A DNA stretch of 7,439 nucleotides, from the IMG/VR virus record IMGVR_UViG_2645727715_000009, one strand, 5' to 3'. A program made the position numbers and the translations under genes. Origin of the DNA: a virus (taxonomy: Duplodnaviria; Heunggongvirae; Uroviricota; Caudoviricetes). The notes beneath the pieces were generated by a model that was not told the origin of the DNA, searched no databases, and saw only the letters and a list, made by a program, of their open reading frames with translations. Of the stretch, positions 254 to 7,439 are shown in pieces (the first letter of the stretch is position 1; every line of letters starts with the position of its first letter).

Positions 254-397
254 ATATACTCGTCATACTTCAAGTTGCATGTGCTGCGTCTGCGTTCGCT
301 CACCCCAGTCACTTACTTATTTAAGCTCCTGGGGATTCACTCGCTTGCCGCCTTCCTGCAACTCGAATTATTTAGAGTATATCCATTTATTATCTTT

Positions 398-587: not shown

Positions 588-2699
588 ATGGATAAACTTA
601 AAATTAAGTTTGATTCATTAGCCTCTCACGATATTACCTTTGTTGGTATTGTACAGACCGCTAAAGCGTCCGGTATGGAACGTTTCCCGCTGCCGTATGT
701 GCTGACCAACTGCCATAACTCACTCTGCGCCGTCGGCGGCACCATTAACGGTGATGACCATGTTTTTGGTTTATCGGCAGCGCAGCGTTATGGCGGTATT
801 TTTGTGCCTCCACATATTGCGGTCATCCATCAATATATGCGTGAGATGATGGCAGGCGGCGGCAAAATGATCCTCGGGTCAGACAGCCACACCCGTTACG
901 GTGCGTTAGGTACGATGGCTGTCGGCGAGGGCGGCGGCGAGCTGGTAAAACAACTGCTTAATGATACCTGGGATATCGATTATCCGGGCGTGGTCGCGGT
1001 GCATCTAACCGGAAAACCTGCGCCGTATGTGGGGCCGCAGGATGTGGCGCTGGCTATCATTGGTGCCGTGTTCAAAAACGGCTACGTCAAAAACAAAGTG
1101 ATGGAATTCGTGGGGCCCGGTGTTGCAGCGCTCTCTACCGATTTCCGTAACAGCGTTGACGTGATGACCACTGAAACGACCTGTTTAAGTTCTGTCTGGC
1201 AAACTGATGAAGAAGTCCATAACTGGCTGGCGCTGCACGGTCGCGGCCAGGATTATTGTCAGCTTAACCCTCAACCGATGGCGTACTACGATGGCTGCAT
1301 CAGCGTTGATTTGAGTGCCATCAACCCAATGATTGCGCTGCCGTTCCACCCAAGCAACGTGTATGAAATCGACACGCTGAACCAGAACCTGACCGACATT
1401 CTGCGTGAGATTGAAATTGAGTCCGAGCGCGTGGCGCACGGGAAAGCCAAACTCTCGCTGCTGGATAAAGTGGAAAATGGTCGCCTGAAAGTGCAGCAGG
1501 GGATTATCGCGGGCTGTTCTGGCGGTAACTACGAAAACGTCATCGCGGCGGCGAATGCACTGCGTGATCAATCCTGTGGCAATGACACCTTCTCGCTGGC
1601 GGTTTATCCGTCATCACAGCCGGTGTTTATGGATTTAGCCAAAAAAGGCATGGTAGCAGATTTGATTGGCGCAGGCGCAATCATCAGAACCGCGTTCTGC
1701 GGCCCATGCTTCGGTGCGGGTGATACGCCAATCAACAACGGTTTGAGTATTCGCCACACCACGCGTAACTTCCCGAACCGCGAAGGCTCTAAGCCAGCTA
1801 ATGGTCAGATGTCAGCGGTGGCGTTGATGGACGCCCGTTCTATTGCTGCGACTGCGGCAAACGGAGGCTATTTAACCTCTGCCAGCGAACTCGATTGCTG
1901 GGACAACGTGCCGGAGTATGCCTTCGATGTAACGCCGTATAAAAACCGTGTTTATCAGGGCTTTGTGAAAGGGGCGACCCAGCAATCGCTGATCTACGGA
2001 CCGAACATCAAAGACTGGCCGGAATTGGGCGCGCTGACTGACAATATCGTCCTCAAAGTGTGCTCGAAGATCCTCGACGAAGTGACCACCACCGACGAAT
2101 TGATTCCTTCCGGTGAAACCTCTTCTTATCGTTCAAATCCGATTGGTCTGGCGGAGTTTACCCTGTCACGCCGTGATCCGGGCTATGTTGGCAGAAGTAA
2201 AGCGACTGCCGAGCTGGAAAATCAGCGTCTGGCGGGCAATGTCAGCGAGCTGGCAGATGTATTTGCGCGCATTAAGCAGATTGCTGGTCAGGAGCATATT
2301 GATCCGCTGCAAACTGAAATTGGCAGCATGGTCTATGCGGTGAAACCAGGCGATGGTTCTGCGCGTGAGCAGGCGGCGAGCTGCCAGCGTGTGATTGGCG
2401 GTCTGGCGAATATTGCCGAGGAATACGCGACTAAACGCTACCGTTCTAACGTCATCAACTGGGGGATGTTACCGCTGCAAATGGCGGAAGCACCAACGTT
2501 TGAAGTGGGGGATTACATTTACATCCCTGGCATTAAAGCGGCGCTGGATAATCCAGGTACGACGTTTAAAGGTTATGTGATCCATGAAGATGCGCCGATA
2601 ACAGAGATTACGCTCTATATGGAAAGTCTGACTGCTGAAGAGCGCGAGATTATCAAGGCGGGTAGTTTGATTAACTTCAATAAAAACCGTCAGATGTAA
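588..2699 (+). CDS. ybhJ: Aconitase-family (Fe-S) hydratase, 703 aa as drawn; true start may lie upstream (see findings)
   Basis: Long ORF with aconitase signatures GSDSHT and CGPCFG (cluster-ligand cysteines) and an [14 protein letters not shown] swivel-type motif. Stop TAA 2697-2699. The ATG at 588 has only a weak SD (GGAA). Confidence 0.85.
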
Positions 2700-2839: not shown

Positions 2840-4123
2840 TTACTTCTTCGCCTCTGCAACCACTTTGCTACCCACGCCGCGGTTATTGTATTCCCACATG
2901 CGGTTGTAGTTAGTGTCATTCAGATTACGCTGTACTTCGTCGTTATCATCAACGTTGCCAGTATTACCCGCAAACGGACGATTGGAAATCACCGCATCGG
3001 CCCACGGTTTAGCCGTGTTAAAACCTTCGTTGATGGCGCTATCACGGATCACCACCTGACCGTTGGTATTGGCATCAACATCCAGCGAGCGGCCCAGTTG
3101 CGCCACGCCATCACCAGAAGCATTGAAACGGCTGTTTACGGCGAGGAAACCGTAATAGATGTTTGACAGCGTAGCCGGTGCAAACACATACGCTTCTTGC
3201 TGGGTACGGGAGTTCACCACGCGGAATTCGGTATTATCGAACACCACTGCGCCGCGACCAGAAACGATATCCACATCCCCTTCAATGTAACTGTTGGTCA
3301 CCAGAGTACGCGGCTGACGGTTGGTTTCCAGACGGTTTTGCACACCACTGTTGGTGACAAAGAATGTATTCTGACGACCGAGAATGTTGACGTTATTGAT
3401 CTGCACTTTGTCGCCATCAGTACGCAGTGCCACCGCCGGATGGTTACCCGCATCTACGCTATCACCCAGCGTGTTTTCGATGGTCAGGTTTTGCAGTTGC
3501 AGGCCATTGTTTTGTGACCAGAAGACCGCAGAGCAGAGAACGCCGATACTGTCGCTGCGTTTGCTCTGGCAGCTATCGTACATATACCACGCTGGTTTAC
3601 CTGGCATATATTTGCCGCGCGGGTTGACGTCGTGACGCCAGTCGGCAGGGCTCATGCCCCCATCAAGGGAAAGCCCAATCTTCACATCAATCGGTTTTTC
3701 ACCTGTACCGTACAGAGTAATTCCACCCGGAGCGGCAGGGACATACACCGTTCCCTGATATTCACCAGGCATCACGGCAATATACTGGCGCTTGTTGGTG
3801 CGCTTGATAATTGCCGCATCTACCGCCGCCTGAATCGTGGTATGCGTTACACCTTGAGTACCCGCCGGGCCGACAACAAAGTCAGGTTGCGCAGGCAGGG
3901 TAATCGGGGAAGGATTCCACGCTGCAGCACCTGGCGTCAGGGACGCAAAATAGTGTTGAGCATCGAAATTCTGCGCTTCTTTTGCCGACAGAATCGGGCG
4001 AGAAGAGGTACCAGGCGCGGTTTGATCAGAAGGACGTTGATCGGGCGGTGTTGAGCTACAGGCGGTCAGCGTCACGCCAAAAGCCAATGCCAGCGCCAGA
4101 CGGGAAACTGAAAATGTGTTCAC
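2840..4123 (-). CDS. ybhC: Outer-membrane lipoprotein with pectinesterase fold (YbhC-type acyl-CoA thioesterase), 427 aa, GTG start
   Basis: Signal peptide plus lipobox (LTAC) at the N-terminus; pectinesterase-like motifs (PAVALR, GDVDIVSGRG). GGAG sits 6 nt upstream of GTG at 4121-4123. Lies immediately next to the lambda att core, as expected for ybhC. Confidence 0.85.
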   Translation of the reverse strand: MNTFSVSRLALALAFGVTLTACSSTPPDQRPSDQTAPGTSSRPILSAKEAQNFDAQHYFASLTPGAAAWNPSPITLPAQPDFVVGPAGTQGVTHTTIQAAVDAAIIKRTNKRQYIAVMPGEYQGTVYVPAAPGGITLYGTGEKPIDVKIGLSLDGGMSPADWRHDVNPRGKYMPGKPAWYMYDSCQSKRSDSIGVLCSAVFWSQNNGLQLQNLTIENTLGDSVDAGNHPAVALRTDGDKVQINNVNILGRQNTFFVTNSGVQNRLETNRQPRTLVTNSYIEGDVDIVSGRGAVVFDNTEFRVVNSRTQQEAYVFAPATLSNIYYGFLAVNSRFNASGDGVAQLGRSLDVDANTNGQVVIRDSAINEGFNTAKPWADAVISNRPFAGNTGNVDDNDEVQRNLNDTNYNRMWEYNNRGVGSKVVAEAKK

Positions 4124-4162: not shown

Positions 4163-4260
4163 GAAGCCTGCTTTTTTATACTAAGTTGGCATTATAAAAA
4201 AGCATTGCTTATCAATTTGTTGCAACGAACAGGTCACTATCAGTCAAAATAAAATCATTA
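4163..4260. other. attL (B-O-P') of a lambda-type prophage; 15-bp core GCTTTTTTATACTAA at 4170-4184
   Basis: Exact lambda core sequence, followed by P' arm sequence (GTTGGCATTATAAAAAAGCATTGCTTATCAATTTGTTGCAACGAACAGGTCACTATCAGTCAAAATAAAATCATTATTTG) running into the int stop codon. Bacterial arm sequence on the ybhC side. Confidence 0.92.
4209..4260. promoter_or_regulatory. P' arm protein-binding sites: IHF H' (TATCAATTTGTTG) and Int arm-type sites P'1-P'3 (AGGTCACTAT / CAGTCAAAAT / AAAATCATTA)
   Basis: Matches to the IHF consensus WATCAANNNNTTR and the Int arm-type consensus C/AAGTCACTAT read directly from the sequence; assignment by analogy with lambda attP. Confidence 0.7.
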
Positions 4261-5328
4261 TTTGATTTCAATTTTGTCCCACTCCCTGCCTCTGTCATCA
4301 CGATACTGTGATGCCATGGTGTCCGACTTATGCCCGAGAAGATGTTGAGCAAACTTATCGCTTATCTGCTTCTCATAGAGTCTTGCAGACAAACTGCGCA
4401 ACTCGTGAAAGGTAGGCGGATCCCCTTCGAAGGAAAGACCTGATGCTTTTCGTGCGCGCATAAAATACCTTGATACTGTGCCGGATGAAAGCGGTTCGCG
4501 ACGAGTAGATGCAATTATGGTTTCTCCGCCAAGAATCTCTTTGCATTTATCAAGTGTTTCCTTCATTGATATTCCGAGAGCATCAACATGCAATGCTGTT
4601 GGGATGGCAATTTTTACGCCTGTTTTGCTTTGCTCGACATAAAGATATCCATCTACGATATCAGACCACTTCATTTCGCATAAATCACCAACTCGTTGCC
4701 CGGTAACAACAGCCAGTTCCATTGCAAGTCTGAGCCAACATGGTGATGATTCTGCTGCTTGATAAATTTTCAGGTATTCGTCAGCCGTAAGTCTTGATCT
4801 CCTTACCTCTGATTTTGCTGCGCGAGTGGCAGCGACAGGGTTTGTTGTTATATGGCCTTCAGCTATTGCCTCTCGGAATGCATCGCTCAGTGTTGATCTG
4901 ATTAACTTGGCTGACGCCGCCTTGCCCTCGTCTATGTATCCATTGAGCATTGCCGCAATTTCTTTTGTGGTGATGTCTTCAAGTGGAGCATCAGGCAGAC
5001 CCCTCCTTATTGCTTTAATTTTGCTCATGTAATTTATGAGTGTCTTCTGCTTGATTCCTCTGCTGGCCAGGATTTTTTCGTAGCGATCAAGCCATGAATG
5101 TAACGTAACGGAATTATCACTGTTGATTCTCGCTGTCAGAGGCTTGTGTTTGTGTCCTGAAAATAACTCAATGTTGGCCTGTATAGCTTCAGTGATTGCG
5201 ATTCGCCTGTCTCTGCCTAATCCAAACTCTTTACCCGTCCTTGGGTCCCTGTAGCAGTAATATCCATTGTTTCTTATATAAAGGTTAGGGGGTAAATCCC
5301 GGCGCTCATGACTTCGCCTTCTTCCCAT
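4258..5328 (-). CDS. int: Tyrosine site-specific recombinase, phage lambda integrase (356 aa)
   Basis: Translation recognised as lambda Int: N-terminal arm-binding domain (MGRRRSHERRDLPPNLYIRNNGYYCYRDPRTGKEFGLGRD), catalytic box HELRSL and LLGHKSDTMASQYRDD with the tyrosine nucleophile. Stop abuts the P' arm. Confidence 0.97.
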   Translation of the reverse strand: MGRRRSHERRDLPPNLYIRNNGYYCYRDPRTGKEFGLGRDRRIAITEAIQANIELFSGHKHKPLTARINSDNSVTLHSWLDRYEKILASRGIKQKTLINYMSKIKAIRRGLPDAPLEDITTKEIAAMLNGYIDEGKAASAKLIRSTLSDAFREAIAEGHITTNPVAATRAAKSEVRRSRLTADEYLKIYQAAESSPCWLRLAMELAVVTGQRVGDLCEMKWSDIVDGYLYVEQSKTGVKIAIPTALHVDALGISMKETLDKCKEILGGETIIASTRREPLSSGTVSRYFMRARKASGLSFEGDPPTFHELRSLSARLYEKQISDKFAQHLLGHKSDTMASQYRDDRGREWDKIEIK

Positions 5329-5524
5329 TTCTGATCCTCTTCAAAAGGCTACCTGTTACTGGTCGATTTAAGTCAACCTTTACCGCTGATTCGTGGAACA
5401 GATACTCTCTTCCATCCTTAACCGGAGGAGGGAATATCCTGCATTCGCGCACCCATCGACGAACTGTTTCAAGGCTTCTTGGGCGTCGCTGGCGAGCGTT
5501 CCACTCCTGAAGTGTCAAGTACAT
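5306..5524 (-). CDS. xis: Excisionase Xis (72 aa)
   Basis: Translation MYLTLQEWNARQRRPRSLETVRRWVRECRIFPPPVKDGREYLFHESAVKVDLNRPVTGSLLKRIRNGKKAKS recognised as lambda Xis; 3' end overlaps the int start by 23 bp as in lambda. Confidence 0.97.
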   Translation of the reverse strand: MYLTLQEWNARQRRPRSLETVRRWVRECRIFPPPVKDGREYLFHESAVKVDLNRPVTGSLLKRIRNGKKAKS

Positions 5525-5551
5525 CGCAAAGTCTCCGCAATTACACGCAAG

Positions 5552-5572
5552 AAAAAACCGCCATCAGGCGGC
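5552..5572 (-). terminator. Candidate intrinsic terminator on the minus strand about 28 bp upstream of the xis start
   Basis: Minus-strand RNA would read CCGCC-UGAU-GGCGG followed by UUUUUU (plus-strand A6 at 5552-5557). Short all-GC stem, so strength is uncertain. Confidence 0.45.
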
Positions 5573-5742
5573 TTGGTGTTCTTTCAGTTCTTCAATTCGA
5601 ATATTGGTTATGTCTGCATGTGCTATCTGCGCCCATATCATCCAGTTGTCATAGCAGTCATTGATGTTCTCTGCTTAGATAACTCTGTTGAATGGTTCTC
5701 CATTCCATTCACCAGTGACTCTGAAGTGCATTTATCATCTCC

Positions 5743-5768
5743 GTAAAACAAAACTCGCCGTAGCGAGT
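5743..5768 (-). terminator. Intrinsic terminator downstream of the 141-aa gene (minus strand)
   Basis: Stem ACTCGC / GCGAGT (5753-5758 with 5763-5768), 4-nt loop, followed on the minus strand by UUUUGUUUUAC (plus 5743-5752). Confidence 0.6.
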
Positions 5769-5818
5769 TCAGATATAATTTTCACCAAAGGCAGTAGTTG
5801 CTTGATGCTAAGAATTAT

Positions 5819-6244
5819 TCAATATCTATTCCTGTAATATTCTTTTATTTTTTTCCTTGCAAAGACTTTTGCTAGTGATTTTGAAACACTCATAAGAGTA
5901 CTAATTCCCTCATCCTTAAAGTTTGTTTTTATAGCTTGCCAGACCTCCTTTTGACGTAAGTCAGCAATAAAATCATGCCCTCTTGCTGTCAACCTCAGTG
6001 GTACTTCGATCCAACTATATTCAACACCTTCCCCTAACTCGTTGGACATTATATGACCGAACCCTGGTTTTCCATCAACCCTAACTATTAATTCGTAGTC
6101 ACATAATAATCGCATATGGAAAATAAAATTTTGGTCATATCTATTAAAGCCATTATCCTCTAGTTCACTAAGCATCGTGTCAGGGCCATAAGTTTTTTCG
6201 AATGCGATAAGTAGATCTTTTAGATATTGCTGGTCTAATTTCAT
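5819..6244 (-). CDS. Small AT-rich prophage accessory protein (141 aa), DUF2513-like (putative winged-helix); function unknown
   Basis: Clean ORF with strong SD (GGAGG, 5-nt spacer, ATG) and TGA stop. Sequence pattern MKLDxxYLKDLLIAFE ... FIFHMRLLCDYELI ... LRLTARGHDFIADLRQKEVW resembles the DUF2513 family as I remember it; needs HMM confirmation. Markedly AT-rich by eye relative to the host genes and int. Confidence 0.8.
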   Translation of the reverse strand: MKLDQQYLKDLLIAFEKTYGPDTMLSELEDNGFNRYDQNFIFHMRLLCDYELIVRVDGKPGFGHIMSNELGEGVEYSWIEVPLRLTARGHDFIADLRQKEVWQAIKTNFKDEGISTLMSVSKSLAKVFARKKIKEYYRNRY

Positions 6245-6249
6245 TGCCG

Positions 6250-6300
6250 CCTCCGTGACATGTCACAGAGATTTATATCATTAATTTTGTTTCGTGCCAG
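6250..6300 (-). promoter_or_regulatory. Predicted sigma70 promoter with extended -10 (TGATATAAA), a 12-bp perfect palindrome GTGACATGTCAC at the predicted transcript start, and the SD of the 141-aa gene
   Basis: On the minus strand: -35-like CTGGCA (plus 6295-6300), 17-nt spacer, TG-n-TATAAA (plus 6272-6280), palindrome at plus 6255-6266, GGAGG at plus 6250-6254. All read by eye; no expression data. Confidence 0.4.
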
Positions 6301-6611
6301 CCTTTGGTCACCCAGTATTGTGAGTCACCATTACACGGGCATGAATTAACAGGAACTCTCTCGCCGCACTTACGGCAACGTTTTCTGCTAATCGATTTTA
6401 TACGCCAGCGCACACGTGCATCATCCTGGCGGCTCAGTAATGCTATGTACTCACCAAACTCGTAAGGCGCACGCCTGAAGCGGCGCGTGGCTCAGTTACG
6501 CTCCAGCATTTCAATTTCCTGAGCATCAAGTACAAGCTCCAGCTTACGCATACCGGATGATGCTTGCTTGGCTCTCTGATCGGCTTTGCGCTCTGCTGCT
6601 GATCTAGTCAT
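6273..6611 (-). pseudogene. 112-codon reading frame interrupted by a single in-frame TGA (6492-6494): 39-aa basic N-terminal segment plus 72-codon C-terminal segment with a C-X2-C-X8-C-X-C zinc-ribbon-like motif. Could be a nonsense-disrupted gene, two small genes, or a readthrough product
   Basis: Hand translation of the minus strand: ATG at 6611 (AGGA 8 nt upstream) gives MTRSAAERKADQRAKQASSGMRKLELVLDAQEIEMLERN, then TGA, then in frame ATRRFRRAPYEFGEYIALLSRQDDARVRWRIKSISRKRCRKCGERVPVNSCPCNGDSQYWVTKGWHETKLMI, then TAA at 6273-6275. Absent from the ORF track because each piece is under 60 aa from a start codon. Confidence 0.3.
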
Positions 6612-6804
6612 TCTGCTTTTCCTGCATCAGGAGAAAGACAATCATGGCGGCGCGGATACTTCCGGTATCTTTTTACGCGATATTACCCTTCAATGGCACA
6701 TACAAGAAGACAGCCATCAGCAGGAATGAGTGAGGAATCGACAACCAGTAACGCTTAATTATCTATAGTGTCGTATTTGCTTCATAAAATATGGCGAATA
6801 ACAC

Positions 6805-6836
6805 AAAGCCCGCAGCAGCTCATTGTGCGGGCTTTT
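6805..6836. terminator. Hairpin terminator, possibly bidirectional, downstream of the 5'-partial ORF
   Basis: Stem AAAGCCCGCA / TGCGGGCTTT (6805-6814 with 6826-6835), 11-nt loop, followed by TTTTCTTAT on the plus strand and by UUUGUGUUAUU on the minus strand. Confidence 0.55.
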
Positions 6837-6904
6837 CTTATACTTACTTCCTGGAGATAATTCTATGGAGGCATTAAATTAATGCTGTCATTGGTAATAT
6901 CATA

Positions 6905-7439
6905 TTATCTAAAAGTCTTTCCACTTTTAACGTCTAGATATATTCTGTTCGACAACGTCATTCCTCCGCAATATGTGAAATAGATGTTTTCACCCTTATT
7001 GCTTGATGCCATCCACCCTCCGATTTCCTTAAAATCGCTTTCCGTGCAGACCCCTTCATTTATTAACTTCCTAGCTGCCGAAGAAAACTCTTTTTTGTAT
7101 ATACGGTAGTCATCAGATCCTTTGATTAAAGTATCATCTCCGCTCGCATTTTCAGCAGGATCTGATGGCCTTTCACTGCTAAGATCACTAAGTTTAACCC
7201 ATTCTGAAAACTTGCCATTAACGATTCCATTTTTTCTTGTGCAGGATTTATTACCTTCTTTAATATATTCGCTTTCCCCTCCAACACATGAGGCTGAATA
7301 TGGCTCAGTTATACGAACCCATTCACCTTTTTTTTTTCTAGAAAATCTACGCCTTCCCTGAAAAAAAAAATAGTTTCCCAGCCACTCCACATTTACTTGA
7401 AGGGCAGGTATGTCTTTCCGTTCGATCAACAACAACCCA
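6905..7439 (-). CDS. Hypothetical prophage accessory protein, 5'-partial (frame open to the window edge); at least 177 codons; AT-rich
   Basis: Minus-strand ORF ending at TAA (6905-6907). The M in the ORF track is a TTG at 7433-7435, but the codon upstream of it (GGG) is also open, so the real start probably lies beyond the window. No motif I can assign. Contains T10 and A10 runs near its 5' end. Confidence 0.6.
   Translation of the reverse strand, partial: GLLLIERKDIPALQVNVEWLGNYFFFQGRRRFSRKKKGEWVRITEPYSASCVGGESEYIKEGNKSCTRKNGIVNGKFSEWVKLSDLSSERPSDPAENASGDDTLIKGSDDYRIYKKEFSSAARKLINEGVCTESDFKEIGGWMASSNKGENIYFTYCGGMTLSNRIYLDVKSGKTFR
7328..7370. repeat. Inverted homopolymer pair T10 (7328-7337) - 23 nt - A10 (7361-7370) inside the partial ORF
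   Basis: Counted directly. On the coding (minus) strand this is T10 (codons YFFFQ) followed by A10 (codons RKKKG). An XbaI-type palindrome TCTAGA lies between them. Confidence 0.9.

Follow-up and report, generated by a model that had tools for sequence, protein, structure and literature searches.

Homology to phage lambda in the window (the whole stretch of 7,439 nt that was analysed) starts with the att core, the first homologous base being position 4170. The core, at the attL junction (4170-4184, plus strand), is an exact match to GCTTTTTTATACTAA, and BLASTN aligns positions 4170-5779 with lambda 27724-29333 at 98.7% identity, the homology ending about 40 bp before ea8.5. Lambda-type int (4258-5328) and xis (5306-5524) lie on the minus strand in this segment, outside the variable block, and their products share 99.4% (Int) and 98.6% (Xis) identity with the lambda proteins, in agreement with the initial annotation, in which int and xis were described as essentially lambda. 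An orf55 homologue (lambdap35; phrog_676, E=1.7e-39) was located by tblastn at 5567-5731 on the same strand. It is a pseudogene with a TAA at codon 19 (5675-5677 in the tblastn alignment), and in the nearest genome it carries the PGAP label 'internal stop'. A terminator-like hairpin found by scanning on the minus strand 3' of the DUF2513 gene (5751-5770; RNA fold -15 kcal/mol, z=-3.99) sits within the lambda-homologous DNA ending at 5779.

The DNA past position 5779 is not lambda. It holds four unrelated pieces, i.e. a DUF2513 gene, a gene for a 112-aa Cys-rich protein, a UmuD-like fragment and a gene for a 204-aa SH3b protein. Comparison of positions 5525-7439 with lambda by BLASTN did not reveal near-identity to ea8.5 or ea22, and BLASTP of the DUF2513, 112-aa and 204-aa proteins showed no similarity to Ea8.5 or Ea22 (E>1), which rules out that the block products are Ea8.5 or Ea22. 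The earlier statements that the xis-distal region is unlike the ea8.5/ea22 region of reference lambda, and that its first ORF of 141 aa, now placed in PF10711, is not ea8.5, were thus correct. Rfam and tRNA scans of 5525-7439 gave no match. The GC content along the block is 36-39% for DUF2513, 50-52% for the 112-aa gene and again 36-39% for the last gene; the label 'AT-rich block' therefore applies to two islands, but not to the segment between them.

The block has already been sequenced and annotated. It is 96.9% identical to CDS0047-CDS0051 of phage Chlobot (PP925838), with the same gene order and position relative to int and xis, and copies with 97.7-99.6% identity occur in 131 complete E. 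coli genomes (e.g. NZ_CP155555, the host prophage of which is a deleted remnant). In Chlobot the orf55, 112-aa and 204-aa genes are intact, whereas the window has the nonsense codons of orf55 and the 112-aa gene in common with its closest relative NZ_CP155555, in which the latter gene is likewise labelled 'internal stop', and adds private homopolymer insertions. Just past the block, Chlobot has a separate ORF for a homologue of the Ea22 N-terminus (92% identity to residues 1-78), and an 'ead/Ea22-like' fragment follows the block in a plasmid copy. The block occupies the same slot as lambda ea8.5/ea22, between orf55/xis and the ea22 N-terminal segment, with the same leftward transcription and small genes that in lambda are non-essential (PMC7093339; Wegrzyn and Donaldson laboratories). 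Among the small non-essential regulators encoded in the exo-xis region is Ea8.5, a homeodomain/zinc-finger protein affecting pI and paQ; Stx phages lack ea8.5 (PMC7093339). The small helical and zinc-finger architecture of Ea8.5 (93 aa) is loosely echoed by the 112-aa protein, although the block products lack sequence similarity to Ea8.5 and Ea22, and lambda has no counterpart of the DUF2513 or SH3b genes.

The DUF2513 gene (5819-6244, minus strand) encodes a predicted winged-helix DNA-binding protein. Its match to PF10711 covers the full domain (profile positions 1-100 of 100) and scores 42.7 bits, with the cut-off at 29.6 (E=7.4e-11), so that the ORF first described as DUF2513-like is a true family member above the gathering threshold. 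As read, the ORF has 141 codons rather than the 142 of its relatives, because a 1-nt insertion near position 5840 rewrites the last 7 residues. The modelled fold is a winged helix, and the protein is most likely a small dimeric DNA-binding regulator; it shares only 8-20% identity with winged-helix factors of the MarR, PadR and HxlR types, has no Pfam MarR or PadR match, and differs from them in the unusual length of its wing (residues 53-85). Neither a sequence nor a profile search of the PDB gave a match. The gene is present in 177 complete E. coli genomes, and homologues in Citrobacter (74% identity) lie between replication and nin genes, without the other two genes of the block.

A perfect palindrome, GTGACATGTCAC, is located at 6255-6266, between the stop codon of the 112-aa gene and the ribosome-binding site of DUF2513 (GGAGG, 6250-6254). 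Escherichia, Cronobacter, Yersinia and Enterobacter all have its core TGACATGTCA unchanged, with variable flanks, and Citrobacter has it with one mismatch. This conservation of a 12-bp palindrome across five genera is the one conserved detail that stands out in the block. An exact copy occurs once in the window and once in the Chlobot genome, where additional copies indicative of a possible regulon were not found above chance. An extended -10-like sequence, TGATATAAA, lies at 6272-6280, and a 9-bp RNA hairpin is predicted over the DUF2513 Shine-Dalgarno sequence (-10.8 kcal/mol, z=-2.0). We infer that the palindrome is a candidate operator or translational hairpin. DUF2513 would probably have an extended -10 promoter of its own, with control exerted at the palindrome either by autoregulation or by translational occlusion.

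Upstream of the palindrome, tblastn identified a pseudogene of the 112-aa Cys-rich protein family (6273-6611, minus strand; phrog_536, labelled 'transcriptional regulator', E=7e-48). Members of this family have six invariant cysteines, and in the window the tblastn alignment shows that the codon of invariant Cys40 is changed from TGC to TGA (6492-6494), with further changes C50Y, G80R and C99Y. The interrupted frame reported earlier is real, but its proposed ea8.5-like length of 92 codons is not, since the gene encodes 112 aa with a nonsense codon at position 40. PDB chain searches with the 112-aa protein (sequence, E<=1; profile, E<=10) returned nothing, and hence no entry of an Ea8.5 homologue. 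For the N-terminus, similarity to the LexA-regulated protein YbfE stayed below the NCBIfam threshold (16.8 versus 62 bits) and is a hint only. With its basic N-terminus and Cys-rich sequence, the protein is probably a zinc-binding phage regulator, dead in this lineage.

In Escherichia, Cronobacter and Yersinia, the 112-aa gene has DUF2513 as its neighbour, with a conserved spacer of about 28 nt and the invariant TGACATGTCA, while protein identity across these genera has dropped to 47-63% for the 112-aa gene and 64% for DUF2513. DUF2513 of Citrobacter and Enterobacter is preceded by a retained 3' remnant of the 112-aa gene; in Cronobacter the pair lies directly 5' of terS, and in epsilon15- and phiV10-type phages the 112-aa gene stands alone at the right end of the genome. 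One could thus regard the two as a regulatory cassette, half-destroyed in this lineage and unrelated to the SH3b gene, for example a zinc-finger activator and a winged-helix repressor acting at a shared palindrome, or an effector paired with a regulator of the Aca-like kind. We consider this unlikely. The 112-aa family is far more common (394 versus 113 protein clusters) and occurs without DUF2513 in at least 50 phages, close DUF2513 homologues outlast the loss of the 112-aa gene, and both the partner and the palindrome are missing from homologues with less than about 53% identity. Nevertheless, the conserved adjacency in three genera and the 3'-end remnants in two further genera speak against a fully independent origin of these two pieces, the reading preferred below, and the two may be, or may have been, a functional pair.

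The third piece is a UmuD/LexA-type (peptidase S24) remnant at 6647-6751 (minus strand), with both ends missing and a stop inside. It is annotated as 'UmuD-like' in Chlobot and as 'DNA repair protein, incomplete' by PGAP. The match to PF00717 is weak and below the cut-off (E=0.037), covering about 35 residues (profile positions 54-87 of 116). A full peptidase S24/UmuD domain with a Ser-Lys dyad can be dismissed, as the catalytic N-terminal part is missing.

The last gene runs off the window, which contains only its 3' 535 nt (6905-7439, minus strand) and ends 87 nt (29 codons) short of the start codon. It encodes a putatively exported SH3b-domain protein of 204 aa (phrog_8310), and within the window its frame is shifted by homopolymer insertions of +2 at 7328-7337 and +5 at 7361-7370. 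The partial ORF of at least 177 codons in the initial annotation is therefore a chimaera of frames from a frameshifted copy of this gene, and the suggestion that it would reach 182 aa like ea22, with a start 6 codons beyond the window, is not tenable for a gene of 204 codons starting 29 codons beyond it. The coincidences in length with ea8.5 and ea22 are thus spurious, being artefacts of the frameshifts and the window edge.

The 204-aa protein qualifies as an SH3b protein by fold or Pfam match (PF08239), and its family has six conserved cysteines. Reading the alignment by eye, we observed a hydrophobic N-terminus ending in AMA|K, with a weak LPAM_1 match, and L-x-x-C lipoboxes in distant homologues. 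The protein is presumably Sec-exported and disulfide-bonded, with a location in the cell envelope, where it would act in the periplasm or on the cell wall. It combines an SH3b domain of the peptidoglycan-binding type with a C-terminal alpha/beta domain of about 85 residues (SDD, GGW and YFTYCGG motifs) that has no match among PDB structures, viral predicted structures (BFVD) or Pfam families. Pfam searches with 10 longer or divergent relatives added SH3b, ankyrin and zinc-ribbon domains, and left the C-terminal domain unmatched. Profile matches to designed TIM barrels in the PDB were regarded as spurious, because none extended over a domain-level stretch. Compared with the cell-wall-binding SH3b domains of endolysins and NlpC/P60 peptidases (e.g. 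the lysostaphin SH3b domain, PDB 9ovi), the 204-aa protein has no catalytic domain attached and is predicted to be exported by the Sec system in a Gram-negative host. The family is large, with 1516 representatives at E<=1e-3 and 169 at E<=1e-30, and the gene is found in 132 complete E. coli genomes. Homologues with 66-69% identity adjoin another integrase in Pseudomonas, belong to a prophage in Aeromonas and, within a core genome, are neighbours of metW/pheT.

A GC-rich hairpin followed by UUUGUGUUAUU (6805-6835, minus strand) is the likely intrinsic terminator of the SH3b gene, with a predicted stem of 10-12 bp and a U-rich tail (RNA fold -21.6 kcal/mol, z=-2.15); the hairpin terminator noted before is thereby confirmed as a structure. 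An A-run flanks its other side and a plus-strand scan picks up part of it, so that the terminator may potentially be bidirectional. The SH3b gene is moron-like, with its own predicted terminator. Like the lambdoid morons bor and lom, it is a single AT-rich gene between phage genes, encodes a predicted envelope protein and has closely related copies in other mobile elements; unlike them, it belongs to the early-left and not to the late region, and a simple scan of the minus strand found no sigma-70 promoter upstream of it. Expression in the lysogen is therefore putative, a point against the explanation preferred below.

As read, all four frames of the window are damaged, two of them (orf55 and the 112-aa gene) by nonsense codons. 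In addition to the umuD scrap and the heavy deletion of the prophage, this might suggest that the block in its entirety is decaying debris of a cryptic prophage, without a function for phage or host; the 8 non-synonymous versus 4 synonymous codon differences between the DUF2513 genes of Chlobot and NZ_CP155555 would fit weak constraint, albeit that they are too few to be informative. Such a general decay is very improbable, as both DUF2513 and the SH3b gene have open frames in a viable phage and in the 128-168 complete genomes covering them, and both families are conserved across genera with many invariant residues. The window-specific frameshifts, moreover, look like sequencing artefacts. Homopolymer insertions also affect ybhI/ybhJ, leaving ybhJ broken, and are absent from 128 of the 128 complete genomes that cover the stretch; most likely they are homopolymer sequencing errors, although a change of +5 is large for such an error. 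The source strain would then probably have intact DUF2513 and SH3b genes next to dead orf55 and 112-aa genes. The case illustrates how ORF lengths may mislead where homopolymer errors or window edges intervene.

According to the initial annotation, the three genes would make up a single undescribed system in an integrase-proximal hotspot, of the anti-phage, superinfection-exclusion or moron kind. The slot beside int and xis is indeed variable, the products are uncharacterised, and Chlobot as well as about 131 E. coli genomes carry all three genes together. This co-travel is seen only inside one block of 97-99% identity, however, and therefore reflects recent common descent. Outside this block the genes separate: the SH3b gene was near none of the 55 DUF2513 loci examined, among which the 112-aa gene was adjacent only in Cronobacter and Yersinia, and DUF2513 and the SH3b gene differ in number among complete genomes (177 versus 132). 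Co-occurrence across divergent genomes, as expected for a multi-gene system, was thus not observed. The GC content is heterogeneous, and in both the window and NZ_CP155555 the middle gene has decayed to a pseudogene, whereas the genes flanking it are annotated as intact in the latter. The suggested HMM check for defence genes, performed with PADLOC-DB v2.0.0, gave no match for any of the four products at E<=1, which argues against membership of a known anti-phage defence system; the database dates from 2023, and newer or undescribed defence genes are beyond its reach. A literature search for DUF2513, PF10711, the WP accessions and Chlobot yielded nothing relevant. With the block already annotated in other genomes, we regard a single undescribed system as extremely doubtful. 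The more general expectation of accessory cargo, with products without a tested function, was borne out.

We therefore prefer, as the probable explanation, that the xis-distal region is independently acquired exo-xis mosaic accessory cargo in a defective lambda-type prophage at attB-lambda, and that its pieces do not make up one system. In this explanation, recombination would have swapped ea8.5 and part of ea22 for pieces of differing origin. The analysis shows the sequence identities, the borders of the mosaic, the damage to genes, the folds and the separate distribution of the pieces, from which the binding of DNA and zinc, an operator role of the palindrome and an envelope location of the SH3b protein are distinct as inferences. 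A quite unlikely, more far-reaching possibility is that the DUF2513/palindrome/112-aa unit and the 204-aa SH3b protein each represent new biology. DUF2513, the invariant palindrome and the often adjacent 112-aa gene could then constitute a phage switch under its own control or an acr-aca-like effector/regulator cassette moving from one prophage region to another, and the SH3b protein could be a new periplasmic, peptidoglycan-anchored factor, which might block superinfecting phages or modify the envelope.

For the window itself these findings matter little, as they illustrate the known mosaicism of the lambdoid exo-xis region. Two leads of modest value emerge for the protein families: DUF2513 as a phage-borne family of predicted winged-helix proteins with a conserved candidate operator, and the SH3b protein as a member of a large, uncharacterised family of putatively exported proteins, the C-terminal domain of which matches no fold or family.

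The prophage is of the lambda type and is integrated at attB-lambda. Its host flank comprises the 3' end of ybhI at the window start, ybhJ (588-2699, plus strand) and ybhC (2840-4123, minus strand), followed by a lambda att core (4170-4184) that matches GCTTTTTTATACTAA exactly, and by int (4258-5328, minus strand) and xis (5306-5524, minus strand), whose proteins are 99.4% and 98.6% identical to those of lambda. A single BLASTN alignment pairs window 4170-5779 with reference lambda 27724-29333 at 98.7% identity, and lambda homology thus runs from the att core to about 40 bp short of the ea8.5 stop codon (lambda 29374). In the closest complete E. coli genome, NZ_CP155555, the prophage is a heavily deleted remnant, in which ninD, bor, a terminase fragment, lom and a tail fibre gene come after the last gene of the xis-distal block. 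In the host flank, the ybhJ-ybhC gap (2719-2835) contains REP/BIME-type repeats (sub-threshold Rfam naRNA4 matches), and one 93-bp REP copy of NZ_CP155555 is missing from the window. A stretch between ybhI and ybhJ (259-382, minus strand) gives a sub-threshold Rfam V_AS5 match (48 bits versus a gathering score of 96, E=2e-8) and may be an ERIC/IRU-type repeat element.

The initial annotation held that the region distal to xis is not the ea8.5/ea22 region of reference lambda, and this is borne out. Lambda and its relatives, among 50,697 phage records searched by megablast, match 5525-7439 over the first 255 bases only, i.e. orf55 and its flanks, and no BLASTP match of the intact block products to Ea8.5 or Ea22 was better than E>1. 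Near-identity to ea8.5/ea22 was therefore not found, and the identification of the block with these genes was rejected. In Escherichia phage Chlobot (PP925838), an 83-aa ORF beyond the 204-aa gene shares 92% identity with residues 1-78 of Ea22; as this Ea22 N-terminal homologue adjoins the block, the insertion has taken the place of ea8.5 and of the distal ea22 segment.

The anatomy of the block was read from the intact versions in Chlobot and NZ_CP155555. Its reading direction is that of pL (minus strand), so that the parts, given here by rising coordinate, are read from last to first. The lambda-derived DNA contains orf55 (5567-5731) and a hairpin (5751-5770). At higher coordinates lie the DUF2513 gene (5819-6244), a 28-nt spacer with the palindrome GTGACATGTCAC (6255-6266) and a GGAGG ribosome-binding site, the 112-aa gene (6273-6611), a umuD/S24-like scrap of roughly 100 bp or ~35 codons (6647-6751; Pfam S24 E=0.037, below the cut-off), a hairpin rich in GC and ending in a U-rich tail (6805-6835; -21.6 kcal/mol, z=-2.15) and the 3' part of the 204-aa gene (6905-7439), the ATG of which lies 87 nt past the window end. 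The umuD scrap, which separates the terminator from the 112-aa gene, lacks both of its ends, contains a stop and looks like a recombination scar. It is annotated as 'UmuD-like' in Chlobot and as 'DNA repair protein, incomplete' by PGAP; the 105-aa 'UmuD-like protein' of Chlobot, called in a frame that overlaps the scrap, is probably a mis-call.

Several of these genes are damaged in the window. A TAA occurs at codon 19 of orf55, and in the 112-aa gene a TGA (6492-6494) replaces the invariant Cys40, next to the substitutions C50Y, G80R and C99Y (Cys99 is invariant and Gly80 nearly invariant in the family). Both are likewise annotated as 'internal stop' pseudogenes in NZ_CP155555 and are therefore genuinely dead in the lineage. 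In the DUF2513 frame, a 1-nt insertion near 5840 alters the last 7 residues. The 204-aa gene shows, on the plus strand, expansions of A5 to A10 (7361-7370) and of T8 to T10 (7328-7337), a net +7 that gives the listed 176-aa ORF a nonsensical N-terminus. These insertions occur in none of the 128 complete genomes spanning the stretch, all of which have 193 nt where the window has 200 nt. Comparable insertions relative to NZ_CP155555 are found outside the prophage, in a T-run at 54-62 (+5) and in A-runs near 517 and 533 (+1 each), the latter two disrupting the conserved ybhJ N-terminus; all indels lengthen single-base repeats, except for a C insertion near 86 and the 93-bp REP difference. On both grounds, sequence comparison points to the frameshifts being probable sequencing or assembly artefacts, though +5 is large for one. 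Real or not, they do not rescue the suggested resemblances in length of the interrupted frame to ea8.5 and of a 182-aa last ORF to ea22; both are spurious, because the true products have 112 aa and, with a start 29 codons past the window, 204 aa.

What the initial annotation noted thus holds in part, and its interpretation likewise finds only partial support. The block is non-lambda and uncharacterised, yet it is not new sequence, and it is partly pseudogenised. The entire 1915 bp of 5525-7439 are 96.9% identical to Chlobot, the block is present at 97.7-99.6% identity in 131 of the 5426 complete E. coli genomes, and within 5525-7439 the sole difference from NZ_CP155555 is 8 bases inserted in the window. 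The products belong to existing families, i.e. phrog_676 (orf55), phrog_585 (DUF2513), phrog_536 (112-aa protein, labelled 'transcriptional regulator') and phrog_8310 (204-aa protein). The term 'undescribed' thus applies to function, as no tested function for any of these four products was found in the searchable literature, but not to the sequence; the block belongs to an already known sort, the variable cargo (exo-xis or moron) of lambdoid prophages. The arrangement int-xis-orf55-DUF2513-112aa-204aa also occurs at 11 places on large E. coli plasmids; on pECO-cbb3 (NZ_CP026206, 1580-7280) it is broken by IS110 and IS5 elements, with the 112-aa gene intact.

The proposal that three products form one system is not supported by the evidence, and we consider it the least probable reading. 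Against a common system stand the mixed GC content (36-39% for the DUF2513 and 204-aa genes, 50-52% for the 112-aa gene), the separate distribution of the genes, and the failure of any PADLOC model to match a block product. Within E. coli, the DUF2513 gene is present in 177 complete genomes, the 204-aa gene in 132 and the full block in 131. In Citrobacter prophages, a 74%-identical DUF2513 has a MazG-like gene on one side and dinI on the other, and other copies follow replication genes in Serratia or lie just upstream of terS in Cronobacter. Homologues of the 204-aa protein (66-69% identity) occur in a Pseudomonas island, where their neighbour is a 499-aa integrase, and in an Aeromonas prophage, and a 48%-identical lipoprotein version adjoins metW/pheT in a core genome. 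When 55 DUF2513 loci were surveyed by tblastn, with up to 4-6 kb of flank, the 204-aa gene was near none. In the Pseudomonas loci (5001-6432), a conserved 208-aa protein without a Pfam match always comes after the SH3b homologue (69%), and the pair has a 499-aa tyrosine recombinase as neighbour and pyocin S genes nearby; it may represent another kind of island cargo, made up of two genes.

At the same 55 loci, the 112-aa gene adjoins DUF2513 only in Cronobacter and Yersinia, and is 4 kb off in one Citrobacter. In Escherichia, Cronobacter and Yersinia, where the two genes adjoin, a spacer of ~28 nt separates them, with an invariant core TGACATGTCA and variable flanks. GTGACATGTCAC, located just before the DUF2513 ribosome-binding site, is a perfect 12-bp palindrome, the 10-bp core of which is invariant in these genera and Enterobacter and has one mismatch in Citrobacter; in Citrobacter and Enterobacter mori it is retained while the 112-aa gene upstream of DUF2513 is reduced to its last ~30 nt. 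It is absent from DUF2513 homologues below about 53% identity, and the exact 12-mer is single-copy in the window and in the 46.5-kb Chlobot genome. TGATATAAA (6272-6280), overlapping the 112-aa stop codon, resembles by eye an extended -10 element, from which transcription would initiate inside the palindrome. As RNA, the region would form a 9-bp hairpin over the Shine-Dalgarno sequence (-10.8 kcal/mol, z=-2.0); what is conserved is sequence, not pairing. Judged by sequence, the palindrome is a candidate operator or translational control hairpin for DUF2513, and we take its conservation as evidence that the DUF2513 gene travels as a cassette of its own, small and self-contained.

The 112-aa protein has no match in Pfam or PDB. 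It has a basic N-terminus with below-threshold resemblance to the LexA-regulated protein YbfE, and its family, which is very common (394 protein clusters; epsilon15, phiV10, Yersinia and Aeromonas phages), shares six invariant cysteines; we infer a zinc-binding regulator. The gene lies immediately upstream of the small terminase gene in Cronobacter prophages (L015-L017, 3635-5105) and, in epsilon15 and phiV10, at the far right end of the genome, a position that presumably fits a late-gene regulator, e.g. the zinc-finger activators Ogr/Delta.

Independent mosaic cargo, rather than a system, is the reading we consider probable. A two-gene regulatory cassette is a somewhat better candidate than the three-gene system, albeit an unlikely one, and pure debris is very improbable. 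Our best guess is that the block would be accessory cargo carried early-left, in the pL direction, in the exo-xis region. The lambda version of this region encodes small non-essential modulators of the lysis-lysogeny decision, among them Ea8.5, which combines a homeodomain with a zinc finger and affects pI and paQ; Stx phages lack ea8.5 (PMC7093339). Here the slot would hold a predicted autoregulated winged-helix protein (DUF2513) and a predicted moron-like exported SH3b protein, probably peptidoglycan-binding, together with two dead parts, a zinc-finger-type regulator (the 112-aa gene) and the umuD scrap. The two probably functional products may serve in developmental tuning, or in envelope modification or exclusion.
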